17,177 nt of DNA, taken from positions 1-17,177 of IMG/VR virus record IMGVR_UViG_2671181056_000008, one strand, 5' to 3'. Of this stretch, positions 194 through 17,177 are shown piece by piece. Made by a program: the position numbers and the translations under genes. The notes beneath the pieces are model-generated. The model had not been told where the DNA came from, searched no databases, and saw only the letters and a list, made by a program, of their open reading frames with translations. Positions within the stretch are counted from its first letter, which is position 1. Each line of letters starts with the position of its first letter. Source of the DNA: a virus. Lineage: Duplodnaviria; Heunggongvirae; Uroviricota; Caudoviricetes.

Positions 194-1294
194 ATGAGCG
201 AGTCCAAATCGCCGGATGCCCTGAGAGCAATGGTAGCCGGTACGCTGGCTAATTTTCAGCACCCAACCCTGAAACACAACTTGACTACGCTTAAAGCGTT
301 ACACCATGTTGCGTTGATGGATGACACACTGCATGTCGAACTAATCATGCCTTTCGTGTGGAATAAGCCTTTTGAAGACCTGAAAGAGCAATGTAGTGGT
401 GATCTGCTCCGTATCACTGGCGCAAAGGCTATTGACTGGAAGCTGTCGTACAACATTGCCACGCTTAAGCGCGTCAAAAACCAACCAGGCATTAATGGCG
501 TTAAGAACATTATCGCCGTCAGCTCAGGCAAGGGCGGCGTGGGTAAATCCTCCACAGCAGTAAACTTGGCACTGGCTTTGGCTGCTGAAGGTGCGAAAGT
601 TGGTATTTTGGATGCCGATATCTATGGTCCATCAATTCCAACCATGCTGGGCGCGGAAAACCAACGTCCAACCTCACCGGACGGTACTCACATGGCACCT
701 ATCATGTCTCATGGCCTGGCAACCAACTCTATTGGTTATCTGGTCACCGATGACAATGCAATGGTGTGGCGTGGACCGATGGCGAGCAAGGCGCTGATGC
801 AGATGTTGCAGGAAACACTGTGGCCTGATCTGGACTATCTCGTTCTCGATATGCCACCGGGCACTGGTGATATTCAATTGACGCTGGCGCAGAACATTCC
901 TGTAACTGGTGCGGTTGTGGTAACTACGCCGCAAGACATCGCGCTGATCGATGCGAAGAAAGGCATTGTGATGTTCGAAAAAGTCGAAGTGCCGGTACTG
1001 GGTATCGTTGAAAACATGAGTGTGCATATTTGCAGTAACTGCGGTCATCACGAGCCAATTTTTGGCACCGGTGGAGCACAGAAACTGGCCGAGAAATACA
1101 ACACGCAGTTGTTAGGCCAAATGCCACTTCATATCTCTCTTCGTGAAGATCTGGATAACGGAACACCAACCGTTATTAGTCGTCCAGATAGCGAATTTAC
1201 GGCTATTTATCGTGACCTCGCAGATCGCGTTGCTGCCCAAATGTATTGGCAAGGTGAAGTAATACCTGGCGAAATCGCATTCCGCGCAGTGTGA
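194..1294 (+). CDS. apbC: Fe-S cluster carrier ATPase ApbC/Mrp (ParA/MinD family)
   Basis: 366 aa; P-loop GKGGVGKS, MinD/Mrp-like core, C-terminal CSNCGH cysteine pair; strong Shine-Dalgarno; stop TGA at 1292-1294. Confidence 0.95.
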   Translation: MSESKSPDALRAMVAGTLANFQHPTLKHNLTTLKALHHVALMDDTLHVELIMPFVWNKPFEDLKEQCSGDLLRITGAKAIDWKLSYNIATLKRVKNQPGINGVKNIIAVSSGKGGVGKSSTAVNLALALAAEGAKVGILDADIYGPSIPTMLGAENQRPTSPDGTHMAPIMSHGLATNSIGYLVTDDNAMVWRGPMASKALMQMLQETLWPDLDYLVLDMPPGTGDIQLTLAQNIPVTGAVVVTTPQDIALIDAKKGIVMFEKVEVPVLGIVENMSVHICSNCGHHEPIFGTGGAQKLAEKYNTQLLGQMPLHISLREDLDNGTPTVISRPDSEFTAIYRDLADRVAAQMYWQGEVIPGEIAFRAV

Positions 1295-1331: not shown

Positions 1332-1721
1332 CTACATCACAGGACAATCATCAAACTCGCCACTTCTTGCGTCGTTGATAATGTGAGTGATCACACCAAA
1401 CACGGCATTGCTGCCCGTGCATCCATCGTCATCCTTTGGCAATGCTTCCTTCTTACCGGTTCTTAAATCCTCCAGATGCTGACGTGGAGACTTCCGGTAT
1501 CTTTTTACGCGATATTCCCCATCCAGAGCGCATACAAGCAGAGAACCATCAACCGGGGTAAGTGAGGAATCAACCACCAGCAATGCACCCTGTAATATTC
1601 CCTCACGATGATGACTATCAGCTGCTCTCATGAAGTAGGTCGCTGAAGGATGTCTAATTATCTGCTGATCAAGAGAAATACGGCTCTCAGCATAATCCGC
1701 CGCAGGAGAAGGGAAGCCCAT
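1332..1721 (-). CDS. UmuD'-like S24 peptidase lacking the N-terminal arm (HumD-like)
   Basis: 129 aa beginning MGFPSPAADY, which matches UmuD from its Cys24/Gly25 cleavage site onward; Ser (AADS) and Lys (RVKR) dyad positions retained; in-frame TGA five codons upstream of the ATG rules out an N-terminal arm. Confidence 0.85.
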   Translation of the reverse strand: MGFPSPAADYAESRISLDQQIIRHPSATYFMRAADSHHREGILQGALLVVDSSLTPVDGSLLVCALDGEYRVKRYRKSPRQHLEDLRTGKKEALPKDDDGCTGSNAVFGVITHIINDARSGEFDDCPVM

Positions 1722-1737
1722 AGCGTTTTGCCCTCAA

Positions 1738-1757
1738 TACTGTTCATTTACACAGTA
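1738..1757. promoter_or_regulatory. LexA (SOS) box TACTGT-N8-ACAGTA
   Basis: tactgttcatttacacagta matches the CTGT-N8-ACAG consensus including flanking TA; sits 17 nt upstream of the UmuD'-like start, overlapping a TATACT -10-like hexamer. Confidence 0.7.
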
Positions 1758-1843
1758 TACATGAAAGAAGCTCACTCAGTGCAACTGATCGGTACATAGC
1801 ACCAGACAAAGGAACGTTATTTTCTCGAACAAGAAAAGGTAGA

Positions 1844-1877
1844 AAACAAATTGTTTAAGGCCACAACTAGTGGCCTT
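1844..1877. repeat. 13-bp palindrome AAACAAATTGTTT followed by GC hairpin, copy 1 of a composite element
   Basis: Perfect palindrome 1844-1856; hairpin aaggccac (1857-1864) / gtggcctt (1870-1877), 5-nt loop. Near-identical element at 6964-6997. Confidence 0.6.
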
Positions 1878-1893
1878 AATGGAGAAGGGATGC

Positions 1894-2457
1894 TTATTGG
1901 CTATGGCTAAAAATCAAATGAGACACTTCATTTGGTTGTAGCTCGTCAAGATCCGGGGCCACAAAACCTTTTCCGAAAGACTTCACAAGTGATTCACCAG
2001 CCGCATCATTGTCACCTATTACGCGAAAGTCATACGGCAGCATTGCCAGTTGACGACGTAATCCTGCTGAGAAAGTCGAACCTAACAGCGCCCACGAATT
2101 TCCGCCCGCGTTGTGCACTGCTGCACTTTTAAAAATCGACTCAGTTATCCATATCGGTCCATCTTTTAAAGGAAGATAGGTTCCCCATAGTAGCTGTCTG
2201 CCGTGCGCTCGTGTGAAATACCGGGCCATCTTCGGATTGCTATGCTGCTTAGGAGCGCCTGGTCTGTATGTCTGATACCCGGCCAACATCCCATCAAACC
2301 TGTATAGAGGGAATGTAACAACTCCTTCGCTTTCATCGATCCACTGTCTATATGGATGCACATCATAGCGGTAGTTACGAGTTAGCAAATGAGCTTCCAG
2401 CTTTCCAAATTTAGTCATAACTTCGCATCCCTCATAACACTTCCCATTTATCACCAT
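1894..2457 (-). CDS. small Toprim-domain protein (DnaG-type motifs)
   Basis: C-terminal half aligns by eye to DnaG Toprim: ITES (catalytic Glu), LGST, VIGDNDAAGE (DxD). Alternative start at 2418 (MTKFGK) avoids the 26-nt overlap with the upstream gene. Confidence 0.6.
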   Translation of the reverse strand: MVINGKCYEGCEVMTKFGKLEAHLLTRNYRYDVHPYRQWIDESEGVVTFPLYRFDGMLAGYQTYRPGAPKQHSNPKMARYFTRAHGRQLLWGTYLPLKDGPIWITESIFKSAAVHNAGGNSWALLGSTFSAGLRRQLAMLPYDFRVIGDNDAAGESLVKSFGKGFVAPDLDELQPNEVSHLIFSHSQ

Positions 2458-3286
2458 ATTTCTCCATAGCTCTTAGCCAATAAACATGGCCACTAGGCAT
2501 AGTGATGTGAGGCTCGCCAAACTCTTCTCCATGTACATCAAAGATGTCCCCAACAGAAAATTGGGGGATTTCTGTTCCGTTTTCACCTATATGTGTAATT
2601 CGTATACGTTTCGGTTGGGATTGTCCACCTTTGAGCGAGTTGTTCACTGCTCTGGCAATTTTCTCCCGCAATTGCTGCGTTCCGTGATACGTAACCGCAA
2701 TATCCCGCAACTCATTCACTAGTTCTCGAATTTGGTGATCTTTAAGCTCATTATTTGGGTGATTGGTAACAACTCTGGTTAATTCCCCATTGTCTTTTGC
2801 TCTTACGTATGCAGCTCTTGTGCATTCGCCCCATGTATTACCGCCTACATTAACTTCGTAGATTAGGCTGGACTTATCTGTCAATTCGGAACAAATACGG
2901 GCCGTGGTCTGGCAACTAGAGCATTCGCAGTTATCGCGGAAACCGTGGTCTACTGGCTTCGGTTTAACATCATCAACTTTTTCTACCCTATTGGAATTTA
3001 AATACTTCGAAGCCTTGCTATGCCAATCGCTGGTTTTAGGATCTTGTCCATCCATCAAACGCCAGGCTTCAGCTATTAACTCATAACTAGTGACTGTAGC
3101 TTCCTGCGCATCACCAATAAGTCGTGTAATCTCTCTTTCAAGCCGACCGCCTAACTCCGTTTTAGTGCAATGTTCTGACCAATCGCCAGTCTCAAGAAGC
3201 GCGAGAATGCTTAAAATATCGTCCAATAGAACGGTAGTATTATCGACTTCCTTCTGAAACTCACCGGCTACTGATTTATGCATCAT
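2432..3286 (-). CDS. hypothetical protein, 284 aa, with CxCxxC cysteine cluster
   Basis: Long ORF; start ATG overlaps the upstream stop (ATGA); no family recognised. Confidence 0.6.
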   Translation of the reverse strand: MMHKSVAGEFQKEVDNTTVLLDDILSILALLETGDWSEHCTKTELGGRLEREITRLIGDAQEATVTSYELIAEAWRLMDGQDPKTSDWHSKASKYLNSNRVEKVDDVKPKPVDHGFRDNCECSSCQTTARICSELTDKSSLIYEVNVGGNTWGECTRAAYVRAKDNGELTRVVTNHPNNELKDHQIRELVNELRDIAVTYHGTQQLREKIARAVNNSLKGGQSQPKRIRITHIGENGTEIPQFSVGDIFDVHGEEFGEPHITMPSGHVYWLRAMEKYGDKWEVL

Positions 3287-3504
3287 TCGTCATCCTCATC
3301 CGAGTCATCCTCATCACAGGATGAGAGTAGTGGGTTAGTCATTCGCCCTACTTGAGTGGCGTAGCAACGCCGACAGAGATTGCGCAGCACACTGTATATT
3401 TCGAACATCTCGGTTCGTTCATCGCCAACATCAAGCTCAGATGCTATAGCGTGGCATTCAGTCGCGAGAGCCGATATTTTCTGAAATAACTCTGCTTTAT
3501 TCAC
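3283..3504 (-). CDS. hypothetical small protein, 73 aa, acidic C-terminus (CDEDDSDEDDE)
   Basis: GTG start at 3504 preceded by AGGAG with 7-nt spacer; overlaps the DUF551-like gene stop. The 93-aa ORF in the track has no ribosome-binding site at its ATG. Confidence 0.35.
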   Translation of the reverse strand: MNKAELFQKISALATECHAIASELDVGDERTEMFEIYSVLRNLCRRCYATQVGRMTNPLLSSCDEDDSDEDDE

Positions 3505-4072
3505 TCTTCGACTCCTGCGGAGGTTCTGGTAGCGGCATCCAGTGAGTTGCTTGCTCAATACCATTACCCGGCTTAATCGTTACATCTCCGCGCCGAAAGG
3601 TGATTCCGGTATAGCGTGCGGAGCATATTAGCGGTTCAACCAGAGAGCTATCGAAATTCACCGAAATAAGCACGTTCTGGCCCTTTTCAGGCATTCGCTC
3701 ACTACAGCTTATCCAACCATCCGGAGTTACCGGATGGGGTCCAGCGAACTCGGGAATGTCAGGACCTTTTCTGATAGCTTTAGCCAGATCCAGCGGGTCA
3801 TCGTAAAGCCAGTCGCCAGTTTGTGGGTGATTTGCTTCTGCAAGCTGCGCAGCCCATTCAAGACCATCTTTTTGACCTTGGAGATAATCAAGCGGCAACT
3901 CTTCATGATTACTTGCAGGTTCTGCACTATCAGCTTCGCGCCGCTTCTGTAGCTCTGCTGCCATCGCTCTCACGACTTCAACTGGTGCCCTTGCAGCAAA
4001 CTCTATGTTGGTGATCAGCTCATTAAGATATTGCTCGCCTGGATACTGTTTCTTATCGGTTATAGTGGTCAT
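3497..4072 (-). CDS. DUF551-like phage protein
   Basis: 191 aa from ATG at 4072 (GGAGAGTGAT upstream); C-terminal segment with THWMPLPEPP resembles the DUF551 signature as recalled. Confidence 0.6.
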   Translation of the reverse strand: MTTITDKKQYPGEQYLNELITNIEFAARAPVEVVRAMAAELQKRREADSAEPASNHEELPLDYLQGQKDGLEWAAQLAEANHPQTGDWLYDDPLDLAKAIRKGPDIPEFAGPHPVTPDGWISCSERMPEKGQNVLISVNFDSSLVEPLICSARYTGITFRRGDVTIKPGNGIEQATHWMPLPEPPQESKSE

Positions 4073-4073
4073 A

Positions 4074-4460
4074 TCACTCTCCTTTTCCCTGAAGCATAGC
4101 AGCGCGGCAGGCATTCCAGCCTCTCACCTCTGCAATAGCGGCAACAGCATCAACCGCGTACATGCTAAGAGGATTAGGCATTGGTTTTTCTTCCGGTACT
4201 ACTGGAACGGGTGGAGCGGCGTAGACCTCAATAATTCCATTATCAATAGGCCATTCTCCATCCTTGAGGTAGTCACTTGTGCCGTCAACTTGCTGTTCTG
4301 CAATGTGGAATGCACCTATTGGTTTTGCTTCCAGCGATGCCAGAGCAATTCGTGCCAGTTCTTCCGCTTCTTCTGCTGGCAGTACAACGTTGCTACCAGG
4401 TCCGTATGTTTCGCGCCACTGTTTGATTGTCAGTAGTCGCTCTTTGGTAATAGTGGTCAT
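4074..4460 (-). CDS. hypothetical protein, 128 aa
   Basis: ATG at 4460 preceded by AAGGAG; C-terminus ends KGE immediately before the next gene's start. Confidence 0.6.
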   Translation of the reverse strand: MTTITKERLLTIKQWRETYGPGSNVVLPAEEAEELARIALASLEAKPIGAFHIAEQQVDGTSDYLKDGEWPIDNGIIEVYAAPPVPVVPEEKPMPNPLSMYAVDAVAAIAEVRGWNACRAAMLQGKGE

Positions 4461-4470
4461 GTGTTACTCC

Positions 4471-4734
4471 TTAACCCGCAGTGCTTTCAACTGATGAGGG
4501 GAACAAAATCCTTTCATCAAATCCGGCATTCATATCATGGACAGCAACACACCAATCCATCGACGAACGATTATCAAGAGCCTCCATGATTTCATCCATG
4601 CGGCGCAGGTCATACAGGTAAATGCTTTTATCGCCAATGGTGTAAAAACCAATTTTTTTCGGTGATGGGCAGCGATCAAGAACGTCCTGTAATTCGTTCA
4701 ACCATGCCCGTTCTTTTTTTGTTAAAGTTGCCAT
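4471..4734 (-). CDS. hypothetical protein, 87 aa
   Basis: ATG at 4734 (MATLTKKERAW) one nt after the upstream stop, preceded by GGAGAGTGAT. Confidence 0.55.
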   Translation of the reverse strand: MATLTKKERAWLNELQDVLDRCPSPKKIGFYTIGDKSIYLYDLRRMDEIMEALDNRSSMDWCVAVHDMNAGFDERILFPSSVESTAG

Positions 4735-4735
4735 A

Positions 4736-5257
4736 TCACTCTCCTTTGATGCGAATGCCTGCTGCAATGCTGTTTATGATGCTGTCAGTGCATGGAGTAG
4801 AAAGCTGGGCATCTCCAGCAATTTTCATGACCTCAACATCCGCATATCGAATACCGAGGTGTATCAGACCGGCTATACCTGACTTAAGTCGAACATTTTC
4901 CATAAACAGATCTTTTTCCCGCTGTTTAGCGGCTTCCAACTCCATCGACAATTTTTCCAACTGCTCTTTATGCTTCTTGTATTCCTGATACGCGTGCCAA
5001 GACTGACCTTTGCGCACACTATCAGTGATATCAGCAACCTGCTCCGGTGTTAGCGTGGTCAGTGGCTGTGCTGGAAAAATCATCACTTTCCCGGCATCCC
5101 AATCAAAACCCGCCTGAATTGACTGAACCTCAACTGATGGTGTTGAACCGATGCGACCAGGCGAATGAACAACGATCGTTACATCCATATCGCGACGATG
5201 GCTGTGGTTGTTGGACAAAATACGATTCACCAACTCAGAAAATTTGGAAAATTTCAT
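4736..5257 (-). CDS. hypothetical protein with Ea22-like C-terminus (AAGIRIKGE)
   Basis: 173 aa from ATG at 5257 (AAGAGGGA upstream, ATGA overlap with the upstream stop); last 9 residues identical to those of the 5579..6109 product. Confidence 0.6.
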
Positions 5258-5577
5258 GCTGATCCCTCTTTCTCTCCCCGGATAATTCTGTTGCACACAT
5301 CCACACACTCGTCGCAGATGAAAACGGCGTCCCCAGCAATTAACTTTTTGACGGCGTACTGGGATTTGTTGCAGAAGCTGCAACAAAGTGTTCGCCTGAC
5401 TGATAAGGATGGAGCGCCAGATGTCAGCCGCTCCATATCGTTCTTGCGACGCAATATCACACGGCTGAACTCAACCAGTTTCTCCGGGGATATCTCCTCC
5501 TCCGTAGCAAGCGCCTCTAATCGTTCGAGTATGTGGAAGGCTTTTTTCTGGGTAATTGCAGAATGCGATGTGGTCAT
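5254..5577 (-). CDS. small protein with C-terminal ClpX-type C4 zinc-binding domain
   Basis: 107 aa; [38 protein letters not shown] closely matches the ClpX N-terminal zinc-binding domain (CSFCGKSQ...RKLIAG...YICDECVDLCNDIIREE) with all four Cys; ATG at 5577 behind GGAGAGTGAG. Confidence 0.75.
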
Positions 5578-5578
5578 C

Positions 5579-6109
5579 TCACTCTCCTTTGATGCGAATG
5601 CCAGCGGCGCGGGAATCATTCCATCGCTTTACTTCTTCACGAATTACGTCAATGCATTCTTTCGAATCCATTAGGTAATCTTCATCAAAAAGACGTTCCT
5701 GTTCGTTTTCTATCGCAACAATGATTGCTTCAACTAACTTTTGTGCCTGAGAATCACTTTCTAACTCTGCTATGCGCTTACTTCCATCCGAGATAACGCC
5801 CTCGTAATACTCACGCTGCTCGTTGAGTTTTGATTTTGCCAACTCCAGTTGTTTTGTTAGTTCCGCAATACGGCAAACATCGTTGATACGCGTTTCCTCT
5901 AATGCGTTGATCTCATCCAGTAGTGCCAGCACGGTTTCTGGTCCGGCCAGAAATTTGAAGGCGTTGAGGGCATCAATATCAACACCGCTATCTTTAAGTT
6001 CCTGTTCACTTAACAAGTCATCATCAGCTGGCAACATTAACAGGCGTTCCATTGCTGGAATTGCACGTTCCGCCACCTCACGCAGTGCCTGGTAATTAAT
6101 TTCGCTCAC
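5579..6109 (-). CDS. Ead/Ea22-like family protein
   Basis: 176 aa; GTG start at 6109 behind GGAGG; MSEIN N-terminus, [27 protein letters not shown] block and AGIRIKGE C-terminus match lambda Ea22-like proteins as recalled (unverified). Confidence 0.65.
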
Positions 6110-6350
6110 TGGCTGCCTCCTGCTTTTCTGCCTTCAACACCATGCGAGAACCATCATCCAGCTCCCACACTATCTCACCACCTTCAGCCATGACCAGTTG
6201 CCACACCAATTGAGCAGCCTCATTGGTAACATCACGACCTGGATCATTGCCAACGCGCATACGTCCACCTTCAACATCGCGCATTTTTGCCAGCATGATA
6301 GTTTTTGATAGCGGTGAAAAACCAAGCTGTAGTCGTGCTGAATTACTCAC
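6096..6350 (-). CDS. hypothetical protein, 84 aa
   Basis: GTG start overlapping the upstream TGA (GTGA), preceded by GGAGG at 6-nt spacing. Confidence 0.5.
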   Translation of the reverse strand: MSNSARLQLGFSPLSKTIMLAKMRDVEGGRMRVGNDPGRDVTNEAAQLVWQLVMAEGGEIVWELDDGSRMVLKAEKQEAASERN

Positions 6351-6889
6351 TGGTTGCCTCCTTTGCGAAGCTGGGCAGCAAAGTCAACTAACCACTCAGT
6401 CATTTCAACCTTCCCTACCAGGTCTGAACCAGGGTGCATACAGCAATCACTCTGCGCCGCTTTGAAATCCTTATACTCATATTCTTGGGCCACCAGATTT
6501 TTTGCAGCTTCTATAGCAGCATCCACCCCCTGCGCACGTACTTCAGCCAGAAAAGCATCGGTGGCTGGAGTCTCCGTTAATTCGCTAACCCAATTATCTC
6601 CGTGTTCCTCGGCACACATCGCATCGAATGCTCGCTCAGATTCTTTCAGGGCTGCATTCTCCGCCGCTAATGCGTCTCTCTGCGCCCGCAACTTCTCAAT
6701 TTCGGCAGCCATGTAGTAACCAACCATAGCGAAGACGGCAAAAGAGTTGTCTGCCTCATCAGGCGACACTGAGGCCATTAGCAGACCATCGTAATAATCG
6801 TGACTCCCATTGGTGATCGCCACCTCATAGGAGTCGTGGTTCTCACGCTTGTGAATGAGAACTACGGGGTTTTCGATTTTGTTACTCAT
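6347..6889 (-). CDS. hypothetical protein, 180 aa
   Basis: ATG at 6889 preceded by AAGAGAAAAACAC, a leader shared with three other genes; first gene after the 6964-6997 element. Confidence 0.6.
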   Translation of the reverse strand: MSNKIENPVVLIHKRENHDSYEVAITNGSHDYYDGLLMASVSPDEADNSFAVFAMVGYYMAAEIEKLRAQRDALAAENAALKESERAFDAMCAEEHGDNWVSELTETPATDAFLAEVRAQGVDAAIEAAKNLVAQEYEYKDFKAAQSDCCMHPGSDLVGKVEMTEWLVDFAAQLRKGGNQ

Positions 6890-13142: not shown

Positions 13143-13736
13143 TTACTGTTTGTTATAAACAAAACCAATATCTTTCTTGTGAGGCATATCTGCTGCTGAA
13201 AAAGCTGCGATCTTCGCGAGTCGATCACATATTTCATTTTCACGATGCCCGGCGTGACCTTTAACCCACTTCCAGCGAACATTATGTCGACTTGCGGCCT
13301 CATCCAGACGCTTCCACAGATCAACATTCTTTACCGGTTTTTTGTCAGAAGTCATCCATCCATTGCGTTTCCACCATTTCATCCACTGTGTCATGCCGTT
13401 TTTCAGATACTGGCTATCAGAGTGCAAAATAACGTTGCATGGATATTTCAAACGCTCCAGCCCGATAAGTGCCCCCATCATCTCCATGCGGTTATTGGTG
13501 GTGCTATGAAAACCATCTGAGAACTCGCGTTCCTCGCCACGATACTGGAGAACGATACCGTAACCGCCCGGGCCACCCGGATTTTTAAGGCAAGAGCCAT
13601 CACTAAAGATTTTCACGGTTTTAAGCTGGGGATTGAACTCTACGACAGGCGTTGTGGGATTGGTGCGGGGAGAATTTTTGTTTTTGTCTTTTTTGCGAGT
13701 TTTTGCTTGCGGTCGGGCTGGTGTCTTCGTTGTCAT
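13143..13736 (-). CDS. rnhA: ribonuclease HI homologue with basic N-terminal extension
   Basis: 197 aa from ATG at 13736 (AGGAG upstream); core [17 protein letters not shown]...TNNRMEMMG...HSDSQY...[11 protein letters not shown] aligns closely to E. coli RnhA; about 40-residue Lys/Arg/Pro-rich N-terminal extension. Confidence 0.9.
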
Positions 13737-14317
13737 ATAAACTCCTGAATCAAGCGCCGCGCCGATTTTTCCTCGCGCGTGCGCACACGCGTGCGTGTTA
13801 ATAATTATTAAAATAAACAAATTACTTCCCAGAACAGGTTTTTATAAACCTGAACTGAACGAACGAAGTGAGTGAAGTTCACCTCGAACGAAGTGAGAGG
13901 TTGTCTTTTCAGGTAATACTCTCCCAGGGAGGTGAGTATAAAATTCCTCACCAACCTGGTCGTTTCATAACCTGAAAAGCTATGGTCTAAGTCTACTGCC
14001 AGCTTAGACTTGGGAAGTTATGGATGACAGCACCCCAGAACCGAGATCTTCCCACACTTTATGAAGGGGAGTACTGGATTCAACCTCTCGAAACACCCCA
14101 GACTCGACAATCATAAAGTGACCCTTGTCTCCGCTCACTTTGGTTCCCCCTTCCCCGACACCTAAACGGCACCGGTTCTACGCTGGTAGTGAGCTTTTTT
14201 AAACCTGACGCCAGTGACGCTTACCCCCACCCATCAGGTCGAGTCTCCAGTCTACGACTGGAAACTATCAGATCTTAGCACTTACAATTCATCTTATGAA
14301 TAGTTTGTACTTATCTA
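13737..14317. other. 580-bp ORF-free structured region (candidate ncRNA, origin or regulatory hub)
   Basis: No ORF of 60 aa or more; 25-nt alternating purine-pyrimidine tract (13774-13798), 14-bp AT palindrome (13798-13811), 13-bp direct repeat (13860-13872, 13885-13897), several hairpins, repeated CACCCCAGA, two AGATCT sites. Confidence 0.4.
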
Positions 14318-14548
14318 TCATTTCGATTGATTATTTTCTCGACCATGTAGTTGAACATTCAAGGCAAACACCTCGTTGATCAACTCACCTAAAAGCTGTT
14401 CAACAAGTTCGCGATGCTCCCCAAGATGCAAGCACTTAATTGCCCACTCGTACAAGTTGAAAGCCTGCTCACGATCTTTCATCATTTCACGAGCCTGGGC
14501 CAGAAAATCGCTGTCTACGAGCGCAACGACATTAGTCGGGTATGACAT
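14318..14548 (-). CDS. hypothetical protein, 76 aa
   Basis: ATG at 14548 (MSYPTN) preceded by AAGGAA; the upstream ATG at 14572 has no ribosome-binding site. Confidence 0.5.
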   Translation of the reverse strand: MSYPTNVVALVDSDFLAQAREMMKDREQAFNLYEWAIKCLHLGEHRELVEQLLGELINEVFALNVQLHGRENNQSK

Positions 14549-14652
14549 GTTGGTTTCCTTAAAGTGGTTCATAAAATCGATTTTAAAGCGTCTGGGAAGG
14601 GGGTCTAGTGGATTCTGTAGTGATGTTCAGGTCTGGAGTCTCTGATACAAAA

Positions 14653-14714
14653 CAGCCTGCTTCCGTATATTAATAATTAATATGTAGTTATTTATATATA
14701 TACAGAAGCAGGCT
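14653..14714. terminator. long inverted repeat with AT-rich palindromic loop, candidate terminator plus promoter
   Basis: 10-bp stem agcctgcttc (14653-14662) / gaagcaggct (14705-14714); loop holds a 17-bp palindrome ATATTAAT-A-ATTAATAT and a (TA)5 tract; followed on the minus strand by GTTTTGTATC. Confidence 0.45.
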
Positions 14715-14735
14715 AATTACAGACGCCAGAACAAA

Positions 14736-15329
14736 CTAAGCAGCCTTCTTTGATGGTCTTTTTTTCCTGATCACATTCGCAGGATCATACCCTCCCAGAC
14801 TTTTCATGACGTCCAAAGGGATCTTGCTTATAGAGTGCCCAGCGTCCTGACAGAATCCTCGAAAAACAACGAGCATACTGCCACCGGGGTTGATGTTTAC
14901 TTCTACCTGACCCAAATTGACGTCAGGCTCGACAAACGCTACGCGGCCACCAGACAGAATAATCGTCTCATTCGCATACTCTGTTGCACGCTCATACCAC
15001 TTTGTATCGAGGGATTGAGGAATTAGCATCACTGTAGTAACTCCGCGAGCCTGCTCACGTATAGCAGCATCAATCCAGGGGGAGATTTTGGAGTAGGGTG
15101 GATTGAGGAAGGCAATTGTACCTGGCTGTCCCCATTCAGATTTCAAAGCATCACGCTCAATGCCTATGAAATTAGGCAGCTTTGCGTTGTCCTTGTTGCA
15201 GGCAACGTCAACATCAAATGTCACTCCAAGATAACGTTGAATGGCAGAAAACAGCCAATCAGGTGTTCTCCAGAGGTCACGAAGAGAGTTGTCGCGCTTT
15301 CGCTGTTTGATTTTTTCGGCTGCAATCAT
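14736..15329 (-). CDS. phage-type DNA N6-adenine methyltransferase (Dam family)
   Basis: 197 aa; WRTPDWLF near the N-terminus and NPPYS catalytic motif, typical of the small phage Dam family. Confidence 0.85.
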   Translation of the reverse strand: MIAAEKIKQRKRDNSLRDLWRTPDWLFSAIQRYLGVTFDVDVACNKDNAKLPNFIGIERDALKSEWGQPGTIAFLNPPYSKISPWIDAAIREQARGVTTVMLIPQSLDTKWYERATEYANETIILSGGRVAFVEPDVNLGQVEVNINPGGSMLVVFRGFCQDAGHSISKIPLDVMKSLGGYDPANVIRKKRPSKKAA

Positions 15330-15396
15330 CTTCTTTCTCGATAGGTAAGTAAATACCTATTTTTGCATTTGATTTTATGTATGGCAATCAAATAAA

Positions 15397-15471
15397 ACGC
15401 GCCAGAAATGCGAACAAGAAGCTCTCTGGCGCGTTTTTTTGGTGCTGGGTATGGGTTATCTTACCCAGCAC
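15397..15471. terminator. tandem hairpins: bidirectional terminator candidate plus a second GC hairpin
   Basis: Stem acgcgccag (15397-15405) / ctggcgcgt (15426-15434) followed by T7 on the plus strand and by TTTTATTTGATT on the minus strand; second hairpin gtgctgggta (15442-15451) / tacccagcac (15462-15471). Confidence 0.5.
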
Positions 15472-15511
15472 TATAAAGCTCTCTATGGGCTTTATTTTCA
15501 GTAGGGGAACG

Positions 15512-16321
15512 TCATCCAATAGTGTACTCCGCGACAAACTTCTTAACGATCGGTGATTCTTCGTTCAATGTTAGATTTCCACCGTCTCTAACGGCAATTC
15601 CTGTAGCTGGAAATACAGCCATCATTTGCCCAGCCTGAGTTGACGCAGTGTTAAGCGGATACGGTTTTTCTGGATTGCTCATTAAAGCAATCTTAATACT
15701 ATTACTTGTAGCCTTCTTTTCTGTAAGAAGGTGTCTCATGGAAATTACCGTGTAAACACTAATATCTGGACCTCCGCTAAACCAATTAAGAAGGTTTAAT
15801 ATCTTATCCTTCGCTTTGACAGGCGCGTTTTCGTAAGCGTCTAAGAAAATATCTTTTTCTAAGCCTGCTTTATTGAAAAACGAATCATCTTTATCACTTA
15901 AAGTAAAACTAGGACCTCTTGCAGCACGAGTTTTTTTATTTGTATTGCTATCATTTGACTGTTGAACTTTTAATTCATCATTAACCTCAACACAATCTTC
16001 AACCTCAATGATCCCCAACTGTTCTGGCTCATTTTCGGCAGCTTCACCACTTTCAGCGTTAATTACGTTTATAGGCTCATGCGCTAACTCCAACTCATTT
16101 AAAGCAGAGCTGAAATCACCTGCTTTTTCTTCATTGAACAGTTCTTCGGCAACATCATCAGAACTCATGGCTACGCCAGCATCGAGGCCGAGAAGCAGAT
16201 CGTCAATATCATCAGTATTTTCAACCTGTGCAGCTTTTTTTACTGGTTCATCAAGTGATTGCAACATGGCTGTCAGCTCATCCAGATCATCATTTGTCAT
16301 TACATTTTCAACCGAACTCAT
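15512..16321 (-). CDS. hypothetical protein, 269 aa, strongly acidic N-terminal half
   Basis: ATG at 16321 behind GGAG; first 125 residues carry about 38 Asp/Glu against 3 Lys; C-terminal half is neutral to basic. Confidence 0.6.
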   Translation of the reverse strand: MSSVENVMTNDDLDELTAMLQSLDEPVKKAAQVENTDDIDDLLLGLDAGVAMSSDDVAEELFNEEKAGDFSSALNELELAHEPINVINAESGEAAENEPEQLGIIEVEDCVEVNDELKVQQSNDSNTNKKTRAARGPSFTLSDKDDSFFNKAGLEKDIFLDAYENAPVKAKDKILNLLNWFSGGPDISVYTVISMRHLLTEKKATSNSIKIALMSNPEKPYPLNTASTQAGQMMAVFPATGIAVRDGGNLTLNEESPIVKKFVAEYTIG

Positions 16322-16442
16322 GTAAGTCTCCTTCTGTTTAGTTGCATTTGCGTTTCGATGGCTACATTTTGACTAAACCTATCAGGCGGAAAAGTATTAA
16401 ATACAGGCAGGAAATGATTGAAAGGCGACTGTTCTTTAAAAG

Positions 16443-16480
16443 AAAGCCTGCTTCAAACTCTCTTTAAAGCAGGCTTTTGT
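16443..16480. terminator. rho-independent terminator after the exonuclease gene
   Basis: About 13-bp stem (agcctgcttcaaa / tttaaagcaggct, one mismatch) with 5-nt loop, T-rich on both sides; begins 2 nt after the 16482 stop. Confidence 0.6.
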
Positions 16481-16481
16481 T

Positions 16482-17039
16482 TTACACAATTTCAGAGGGT
16501 AATTTAAAAAATCCGTATTTATTACGTGCCTTAAAGAAGCATTGCATCATTAAGTTTGTGTCATATAAGGCACTATGTGCTTTGGCATGATCGTATATAA
16601 AGCCAAGAGAGAAGGCCAATTCTTCAAGGCGAGGACGTTTACCGTCTTCTGTGGCCCACAATCCCGATAACATAGTATCTATAACGGGAACGTCTGGCAG
16701 TCTTACTCCATACCCTGAAAACTCGTGTCTAATAAATGGTATATCAAACGCTTCGCCGTTATGAGCAACCCACGCACTACATGCCTCCATATAAGCGCCA
16801 ATTTCGCTAGCATGATTTGACAACAAAGGTTCAGCTGCGAGCTGTTCTAATGAAATGCCATGAACGGCTTGAGCTTTCGGATCTATGTTTCTGCGAGGGT
16901 TAAAACGCATCTCCAGACTATCAATATGTCTCTGTGTCTCCAGTTCATAGCGGGTAATTGCGATTTCAATAATTTTATGACCAGCAAGGAAATCCAGTCC
17001 CGTAGACTCGATATCGATGCCTGCAACAATCGTTGTCAT
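16482..17039 (-). CDS. DnaQ-like 3'-5' exonuclease (DEDDh family)
   Basis: 185 aa; Exo I GIDIESTGLD, Exo II HNGEAFDIPF, Exo III HSALYD; ATG at 17039 behind AAGGAG. Confidence 0.85.
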   Translation of the reverse strand: MTTIVAGIDIESTGLDFLAGHKIIEIAITRYELETQRHIDSLEMRFNPRRNIDPKAQAVHGISLEQLAAEPLLSNHASEIGAYMEACSAWVAHNGEAFDIPFIRHEFSGYGVRLPDVPVIDTMLSGLWATEDGKRPRLEELAFSLGFIYDHAKAHSALYDTNLMMQCFFKARNKYGFFKLPSEIV

Positions 17040-17177
17040 CAGAACTCCTTACAACTTCTTAGCGCCCTTAAGTAGTGCGCTACGTACAAATTGAGCCGCT
17101 TTTTTCAAAGTTTCTTCACTGGTTTCACAGACAATCTGAAGTGGTCAACAAAAACTGGCCACCGAGTTAGAGTTTTT

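Follow-up and report, generated by a model that had tools for sequence, protein, structure and literature searches.

The first 17,177 nt of IMG/VR virus record IMGVR_UViG_2671181056_000008 (a 17.2-kb stretch, referred to below as the window) encode, on the minus strand of region 13143-17039, a type 1 ribonuclease H (RNase HI) and a DEDDh 3′-5′ exonuclease. Both genes are real but ordinary, being annotated replication accessory genes of a known family of phage-plasmids, and it is fairly probable that they serve as helpers of lytic replication, in which the exonuclease would proofread for the phage-encoded DnaE polymerase and the RNase HI would clear RNA primers and R-loops. The same interval contains a gene for a structured RNA that probably represents a new family. 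A previous sequence-only reading had presented the two nucleases as part of an island that may have captured, or may mimic, the neighboring host genes rnhA and dnaQ. Here, this story of host-pair mimicry is corrected and both genes are placed in the self-contained replisome of SSU5/pHCM2-type elements, which is a modest finding.

Identity of the element and its replication module

The window matches plasmid p09EL50 of Escherichia coli O104:H4 2009EL-2050 as well as 'Escherichia phage CMS-2020a' at 99.9-100% identity and, over the shared part, Salmonella phage SSU5 at approximately 83%; in SSU5 the gene order is the same, and pHCM2 matches the region of the RNA gene. These matches identify the source as an SSU5/pHCM2-type phage-plasmid and not a chromosomal island, so that the term 'island' used previously has to be abandoned. 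The element has a size of ~109 kb, and phage-plasmids of this type measure ~105-115 kb. In the annotation of the whole p09EL50 record, a tailed-phage structural module is accompanied by RepB/ParB plasmid functions and by a near-complete set of replication and nucleotide-metabolism proteins, including DnaE (1172 aa), a DnaB-like helicase, a toprim protein, DNA ligase, a FEN-type 5′-3′ exonuclease, RecA, NrdAB, ThyA and DHFR (DfrA51). The backbone order observed in phage nickie (helicase, primase, ligase, CobT/S, DnaE, SSB, FEN, RecA, SbcCD-like, NrdAB, ThyA, DHFR and exonuclease) is common to the element, and region 13143-17039 belongs to the early/lytic DNA-metabolism block of the phage-plasmid.

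Phage-plasmids of the SSU5/pHCM2 type occur commonly in clinical E. coli, Klebsiella, Salmonella and Enterobacter. The resistance genes that they carry include dfrA51, and 687 plasmids in PLSDB have the locus described here. In the present element, the DHFR gene (L001 20175-20651, ~1 kb past the end of the window) is annotated as the trimethoprim-resistance gene dfrA51, which was previously described in phage-plasmids (PMC12217456).

The RNase HI and its N-terminal tail

The open reading frame (ORF) of the RNase HI covers 13143-13820 on the minus strand, and its actual start is the ATG at 13736, which gives the same 197-aa coding sequence (CDS) as in RefSeq. The protein matches Pfam RNase_H (PF00075, 1.1e-44, 152.5 bits against a cutoff of 25.8, aa 40-178) as well as the NCBIfam equivalog NF001236 (220.4 bits, cutoff 160), and shares 60% identity over 155 aa, i.e., the entire host enzyme, with RnhA of E. 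coli K-12. Residues D46, E85, D107, H161 and D171 align to D10, E48, D70, H124 and D134 of the E. coli enzyme and are invariant in 24 sequences, and the RNase H domain is modeled by AlphaFold2 (AF2) with a predicted local distance difference test score (pLDDT) of about 90 or higher. The enzyme thus appears to be a catalytically intact, type 1 RNase H of the RnhA equivalog. The closeness to host RnhA reported by the sequence-only reading was confirmed, and no sign of catalytic inactivity was seen, the active-site residues being intact.

The basic N-terminal extension described in that reading is also present, with its length corrected from 40 to 37 aa. It contains nine Lys and Arg, two Asp and Glu and six Pro residues, with a net charge of +7. 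Among the phage-plasmid variants, both ends of the tail are kept and the middle is variable, the net charge stays between +6 and +9 in all of them, and the tail codons are 59-66% identical across lineages. Residues 1-26 have a pLDDT below 50 in the AF2 model, and the tail is predicted to be disordered. No Pfam match was found in the protein outside aa 40-178, and specifically no hybrid-binding domain (HBD, PF01693); the absent match together with the predicted disorder rules out the tail as such a domain. Between the RNA gene and the ribosome-binding site of rnhA lies a 24-nt tract, partly palindromic and of Z-DNA-like composition, which is kept in all lineages and is possibly an operator or promoter element of rnhA.

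In a neighbor-joining (NJ) tree built from 48 RNase H domains, the enzymes of the phage-plasmids group in a single clade (100/100 bootstrap) on a long branch, outside the group that comprises RnhA of Enterobacterales, Vibrio, Alteromonadales and Aeromonadales. Over the gap-free columns of the tree alignment, they share 64% identity with E. coli RnhA, which is itself 83-93% identical to RnhA of other Enterobacterales and 75-78% to that of Vibrio. For other phage RNases HI, identity to the phage-plasmid enzyme does not exceed 52%. A scan of 185,579 species genomes (574 confirmed candidates) revealed no chromosomal RnhA above 62% identity among the matches listed; these were chromosomal rnhA genes only, informative for the tree and not for synteny.

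The gene has a patchy distribution among relatives of the element. By tblastn, no RNase HI was detected in phage nickie, whose genome is complete, and the gene is also missing in two further relatives, L173 (Xenorhabdus) and L175; L172 (Morganella) and L174 have only distantly similar enzymes (32% and 51% identical, respectively). Because it is absent from nickie despite the same backbone, RNase HI appears to be an add-on, confined to part of the enterobacterial branch. In L175, a Tad2-like (anti-Thoeris) gene (13359-13673) follows the RNA gene at the equivalent position. The stretch downstream of the RNA gene is a hotspot of accessory genes.

The exonuclease and the phage DNA polymerase

The motifs and the RNase_T fold (PF00929, 2.5e-21) place the second nuclease in the superfamily of DEDDh (DnaQ-like) 3′-5′ exonucleases. 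Its residues D9, E11, D99, H155 and D160 do not vary among 40 homologues, and it shares 29% identity with residues 11-176 of DnaQ. AF2 models it as one compact domain (pLDDT 96), for which Foldseek gave E. coli epsilon186 as the best full-length match (TM score 0.75-0.83, root-mean-square deviation 2.2-2.9 Å). The best NCBIfam, PDB and fold matches are all the epsilon subunit of DNA polymerase III (Pol III), and the protein belongs to PHROG 192, 'DNA polymerase exonuclease subunit' (6e-51). The sequence-only reading was thus right in placing a DEDDh exonuclease related to the Pol III proofreading subunit about 3 kb from the RNase HI on the same strand.

By tblastn, the exonuclease was detected in 36 phage records, including 12 SSU5-like ones and 19 from phages of ~106-122 kb that infect Rhizobium, Pseudomonas syringae, Stenotrophomonas and Xanthomonas, with 37-44% identity in the latter. 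The 31 best phage matches of the element DnaE are the same 31 genomes that hold clear homologues of the exonuclease. In the distant phages, DnaE identity (35-37%) runs parallel to that of the exonuclease, and the next DnaE matches, in Streptomyces phages, drop to 29%. In most of these records, dnaE is followed on its own strand, after roughly 25-28 kb, by the exonuclease gene, which in all relatives sits in the nucleotide/replication block directly after NrdAB-ThyA-DHFR. Judging from their homologues, the exonuclease and DnaE appear to have been co-inherited already before the ~110-kb siphoviruses of Pseudomonas, Rhizobium, Stenotrophomonas and Xanthomonas branched off.

A search of the PDB with the PHP domain of DnaE alone gave no match, and the full-length query provided an alignment with Mycobacterium tuberculosis DnaE1 (5lew). 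In this alignment, the PHP motifs are replaced as follows: HxHxH by LMVRT, LDG by LGE, TDH by ADS, GVE by GVK and NDCHY by YPAYY. The PHP domain of the element DnaE therefore looks degenerate, with its metal ligands lost.

No echo of the host rnhA-dnaQ pair

As the sequence-only reading stated, rnhA and dnaQ are neighbors in E. coli; in K-12 they are divergent and 64 bp apart. That the element captured this pair, or convergently mimics it as a functional unit, would account for the presence of homologues of both host genes within 3.3 kb on one strand, for the retention of the RNase HI and exonuclease pairing in more than 50 SSU5-like loci, and for the distant phage L168, in which the exonuclease and a different RNase HI are 2.1 kb apart. 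Nevertheless, we regard this explanation as extremely improbable, since identities, tree, distribution and synteny all differ from what it implies. The two proteins differ widely in their identity to the host counterparts (60% for the RNase HI and 29% for the exonuclease); the exonuclease tracks the phage DnaE lineage, in the same 31 phages; and RNase HI, which nickie, L173 and L175 lack, is inverted in Morganella and falls in a clade outside Enterobacterales/Vibrio RnhA, so that the two genes come from unrelated lineages. There is also no divergent, promoter-sharing layout: the two CDSs share one strand, and the 2745 bp that separate them contain three protein genes as well as the RNA gene.

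A genuine host capture within the same element looks quite different. Its MetG and Mrp/ApbC proteins are 99% and 95% identical to those of K-12 and their genes are still divergent; the metG-mrp pair is a recent acquisition from the host. The RNase HI and the exonuclease are neighbors only through a shared replication module, with no echo of the host pair.

A structured RNA gene upstream of the RNase HI gene

Between the gene for a 76-aa protein and rnhA there is an ORF-free stretch of 581 bp (13737-14317). Its minus strand folds with -213.9 kcal/mol, compared to -168±6.7 in shuffled sequences (z=-6.9) and -175 kcal/mol for the plus strand, and many conserved G-U pairs are valid on the minus strand only. 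The core of this RNA was found in 687 PLSDB plasmids (pHCM2 included) and 12 phage records. The RNA is 84-93% identical across lineages, whereas the flanking CDSs are 72-81% identical. In an alignment of 30 variants, the extended -10 promoter element TGnTAnnAT is invariant and the core almost so, the 5′ hairpin has completely changed its sequence between variants with its pairing preserved, and the 3′ end consists of a closing helix followed by a T-run, which resembles a terminator. Covariation was assessed over 146 pairs, in which 98.3% of alignment cells are paired; 15 pairs, with 106 cells, changed on both sides, compared to 33.6±5.5 such cells in shuffles (0/500 reached the observed value) and 5-19 in slid controls.

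The RNA has no match in Rfam at gathering thresholds (0 hits), and no tRNA or tmRNA was found. At E≤5, only implausible Rfam models of hepatitis C virus, microRNAs and a Streptococcus small RNA were retrieved, far under their cutoffs. A hidden protein gene in the gap was considered and rejected, the sole recurrent ORF (36 aa, CYRAN_81-like) being frameshifted or truncated in three lineages; the record of the phage-plasmid Cyrano calls a 44-aa ORF inside the RNA gene. In the transcriptome of the E. coli LF82 lysogen of Cyrano, CYRAN_81, the tiny ORF inside the RNA, reached 117 fragments per kilobase per million (fpkm), compared to 8-10 for both neighbors, and was classed by the authors as a 'moron' with expression 12-fold over background (PMC9928086). 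As this signal is far above that of the neighbors, the RNA is likely made autonomously in lysogeny.

Homologues outside the closest lineages, sought by nhmmer, indicate that the linkage of the RNA to RNase HI is frequent but not invariable. L175, a lineage without RNase HI, has a homologue that is 58% identical with 26 compensatory pairs, which weakens any idea of an obligate coupling between the RNA and the enzyme. In L172, a partial homologue lies directly upstream of the different RNase H of this lineage, both being inverted together. L152 and L153, considered as cases of RNase HI without the RNA, contain pseudogene fragments and are uninformative. A 581-nt ORF-free stretch in L174 (14699-15279), upstream of its 51%-identical RNase HI, also folds strongly (z=-6.0); it has no detectable similarity to the RNA gene and may be a diverged or an analogous RNA. 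Pairing of a G-rich loop of the RNA with the 5′ untranslated region of the gene for the 76-aa protein (21 nt, 81% complementary) was dismissed as chance, the site being absent in all other lineages.

Taken together, it is rather likely that this is a genuine new family of structured noncoding RNA. Among the items in the interval, it is the most novel and the likeliest to repay further work, as it exceeds the neighboring proteins in conservation, is supported by covariation, is transcribed in the lysogen and fits no known family.

Functional interpretation and alternative explanations

In the LF82 lysogen, both nuclease genes were at prophage background (8.4 fpkm for RNase H and 10.7 fpkm for the exonuclease), compared to 95.8 fpkm for the repressor (PMC9928086, S1 Table), which suggests that they belong to the repressed (lytic) program and not to plasmid-mode replication. 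Within this program, the DEDDh protein would most likely be the trans-acting 3′-5′ proofreading partner of the element's DnaE. With the PHP metal ligands apparently lost, DnaE would be unable to proofread by itself, and the constant company of a PHP-dead DnaE and an epsilon-like DEDDh domain points to a proofreader acting in trans. The RNase HI, together with the FEN and the ligase of the element, would remove RNA primers and/or R-loops in the course of rapid lytic replication, and its disordered tail, rich in Lys, Arg and Pro, would probably add non-specific affinity for nucleic acids. We consider this replication-helper interpretation quite probable as a whole. The role in primer or R-loop processing that the sequence-only reading had suggested thus survives as a general replication role, without its reference to an island. 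Apart from the LF82/Cyrano transcriptome, nothing specific was found in the literature on RNase H, exonuclease or noncoding RNAs of SSU5/pHCM2 elements.

Several observations weigh against this interpretation. The exonuclease scores below the cutoffs of the DnaQ models (72.3 bits for NF004316, cutoff 196; 66 for TIGR01406, cutoff 222.7; and 53.4 for TIGR00573, cutoff 71.5), and it stops at residue 185, without the C-terminal peptide that tethers epsilon to the alpha subunit. Its co-occurrence with DnaE may reflect one syntenic backbone inherited whole, and the PHP metal ligands are identified through the positions of the canonical motifs compared above. Moreover, RNase HI is dispensable for relatives with the same replisome (nickie, L173 and L175), and its role may be accessory or unconnected to primer removal.

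Some of the same features would suit a general nuclease, which degrades host DNA or RNA, trims 3′ ends in recombination in the manner of ExoX or RNase T, or acts in counter-defense, rather than a replicative proofreader. Comparable fold scores were obtained for the DEDDh protein with the exonuclease domain of Staphylococcus aureus DinG, RNase T, TREX and ExoX, and the lack of the epsilon tail and the scores under the DnaQ cutoffs agree with such a role. However, the best sequence matches are epsilon, the protein is strictly co-distributed with one PHP-dead DnaE lineage, and its position in the replication block after NrdAB-ThyA-DHFR is kept in all relatives, which together make this explanation unlikely. 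Counter-defense or host manipulation as the chief role of the RNase HI, for instance by destroying the RNA:DNA hybrids needed by retrons or DRT systems, is less likely still: it would fit a lineage-specific add-on in an accessory-rich variable region, which includes TerB, toxin-antitoxin modules and, at the equivalent position in L175, the Tad2-like gene, but the enzyme is of the canonical housekeeping type and is not expressed in the lysogen.

The remaining alternative connects the RNase HI to the adjacent RNA. According to it, the G-run-rich transcript of ~455 nt forms an R-loop or a pre-primer of a lytic origin, similar to ColE1 RNA II, and is processed by the enzyme, held in place by its tail, so that replication is started or regulated. 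In each of the SSU5-like loci examined, rnhA is immediately preceded by the RNA gene, both being on one strand; in Morganella, the RNA and its adjoining RNase H were inverted as one unit, and the strongly folding 581-nt ORF-free stretch ahead of the RNase HI in L174 (z=-6.0) could be read in the same sense. The RNA also holds ten G runs of at least three, compared to three C runs, and is followed by a spacer that is variable and AT-rich and by a GC element that is conserved. On the other hand, it persists with 26 compensatory pairs in L175, where RNase HI is lacking, and it is expressed in the lysogen while RNase HI is silent. Its extensive conserved structure and terminator-like 3′ end suit a stand-alone RNA better than a primer, and the sole candidate iteron among origin signals is a 13-nt repeat that occurs twice. 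ColE1-like priming or an R-loop role is therefore possible but not favored, and direct action of the RNase HI on this RNA seems improbable. It is similarly doubtful that the RNA founds an undescribed class of large RNAs of SSU5-like phage-plasmids, made in the lysogen, coupled to the tailed RNase HI and working as a ColE1-like, RNA-primed lytic origin or switch; if this were true, the phage RNase HI would process an R-loop or primer at the RNA locus as the lytic program switches on.

Other genes and features of the element

The features of the window are collected in Table 1. Homologues of the 269-aa protein adjoin the exonuclease, on its downstream side, in nickie, L168 and L172-L175, and this acidic protein, judged by its conserved position, may assist the exonuclease or the polymerase. 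The insertion sequence (IS) of the IS3 family at the end of the window interrupts a gene for a 139-aa protein; p09EL50 lacks this IS, which is found only in the present copy of the element and could be polar on exonuclease expression there.

Table 1. Coordinates of genes and other elements within the window
Feature	Position	Strand	Description
apbC/mrp	194-1294	+	95% protein identity to K-12; metG extends upstream (L001 4-2037)
RNase HI gene, 197 aa	13143..13736	-	E. coli-type RNase H domain at aa 38-197, DEDD+H active site, basic protrusion
RNase HI N-terminal tail, codons 1-37	13626..13736	-	Basic, proline-rich; MTTKTP...TPVVEFNPQ
Shine-Dalgarno AGGAG	13742..13746	-	5 nt ahead of ATG 13736; GGAG and ATG kept in 30/30 aligned relatives
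Alternating purine/pyrimidine GC-rich 24-nt tract CACGCACGCGTGTGCGCACGCGCG	13774..13797	-	Palindromic core; between RNA gene and rnhA ribosome-binding site
~455-nt structured RNA gene	13810..14265	-	19 helices, 5′ hairpin, invariant core, closing helix then T-run; unannotated in RefSeq
Extended -10 promoter TGcTAAGAT	14272..14280	-	GTGnTAnnAT columns invariant in the alignment; putative -35 TTCATA 17 bp upstream
76-aa protein, PHROG 5343	14318..14548	-	Conserved upstream neighbor of RNA gene; no assigned function
Phage N6-adenine DNA methyltransferase (Dam family)	14736..15329	-	Profile matches
269-aa protein, PHROG 5235	15512..16321	-	Very acidic N-terminal half, conserved C-terminal ~100 aa
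Stand-alone DEDDh 3′-5′ exonuclease (DnaQ-like), 185 aa	16482..17039	-	Without epsilon C-terminal polymerase-binding tail
IS3-family (IS911-like) insertion sequence end	17137..17177		Last 41 nt are the terminal repeat, 97 bp upstream of exonuclease start

Elsewhere in the window, positions 1332-6580 are mosaic with phage P1: an S24/UmuD-like peptidase gene and neighboring small genes share 90-93% DNA identity with P1-family phages. In the LF82 lysogen, the copy of mrp (CYRAN_99, annotated as 'MinD') was expressed 9x above background (PMC9928086). The highest-expressed locus of the element by far was CYRAN_43 (Cyrano OV696614 40268-40822, outside the window), a hypothetical gene that adjoins the integrase and repressor genes, at 723-fold above prophage background (PMC9928086, Table 1).

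Comparison with known systems

ROOL, GOLLD and ColE1 RNA II are large structured RNAs of phages or plasmids, and ColE1 RNA II is cut by RNase HI. The RNA gene resembles them in its length of a few hundred nucleotides, its highly structured nature, its location on a mobile element and the RNase H-related function adjoining it. It differs in having no Rfam match, its own promoter and a terminator-like end, in being expressed in the lysogen, and in persisting without RNase HI.

The RNase HI shares with E. coli RnhA (PF00075/NF001236) the DEDD and His site, the basic protrusion, 60% of residues and a confidently predicted fold, and departs from it in the 37-aa tail, an extra Gly (NPGGPGG), a 4-aa insertion near the C-terminus, its own long-branch clade, and its being phage-encoded and silent in the lysogen. 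With HBD-bearing RNases H1 of the eukaryotic or Thermotoga type (PF01693), the likeness lies in an N-terminal appendage that possibly raises affinity or processivity and is an analogy only; unlike the HBD, the tail is not a folded domain, and its composition and charge are kept while its sequence is not. An RNase HI with a disordered tail of conserved charge is thus a modest variant, and a testable one.

The exonuclease has the DEDDh motifs and fold of Pol III epsilon (DnaQ) and PHROG 192, at 29-31% identity, in a genome that also encodes a DnaE-type polymerase. In contrast to DnaQ, it is devoid of the Q-linker, the clamp-binding motif and the C-terminal alpha-binding peptide, and its gene is not divergently adjacent to rnhA. 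Within PHROG 192, it is 40% identical to gp066 of Pseudomonas phage nickie. A tail-less epsilon-like exonuclease combined with a PHP-dead DnaE is likewise a modest, testable variant, and would constitute a minimal, and possibly new, alpha-epsilon interface.

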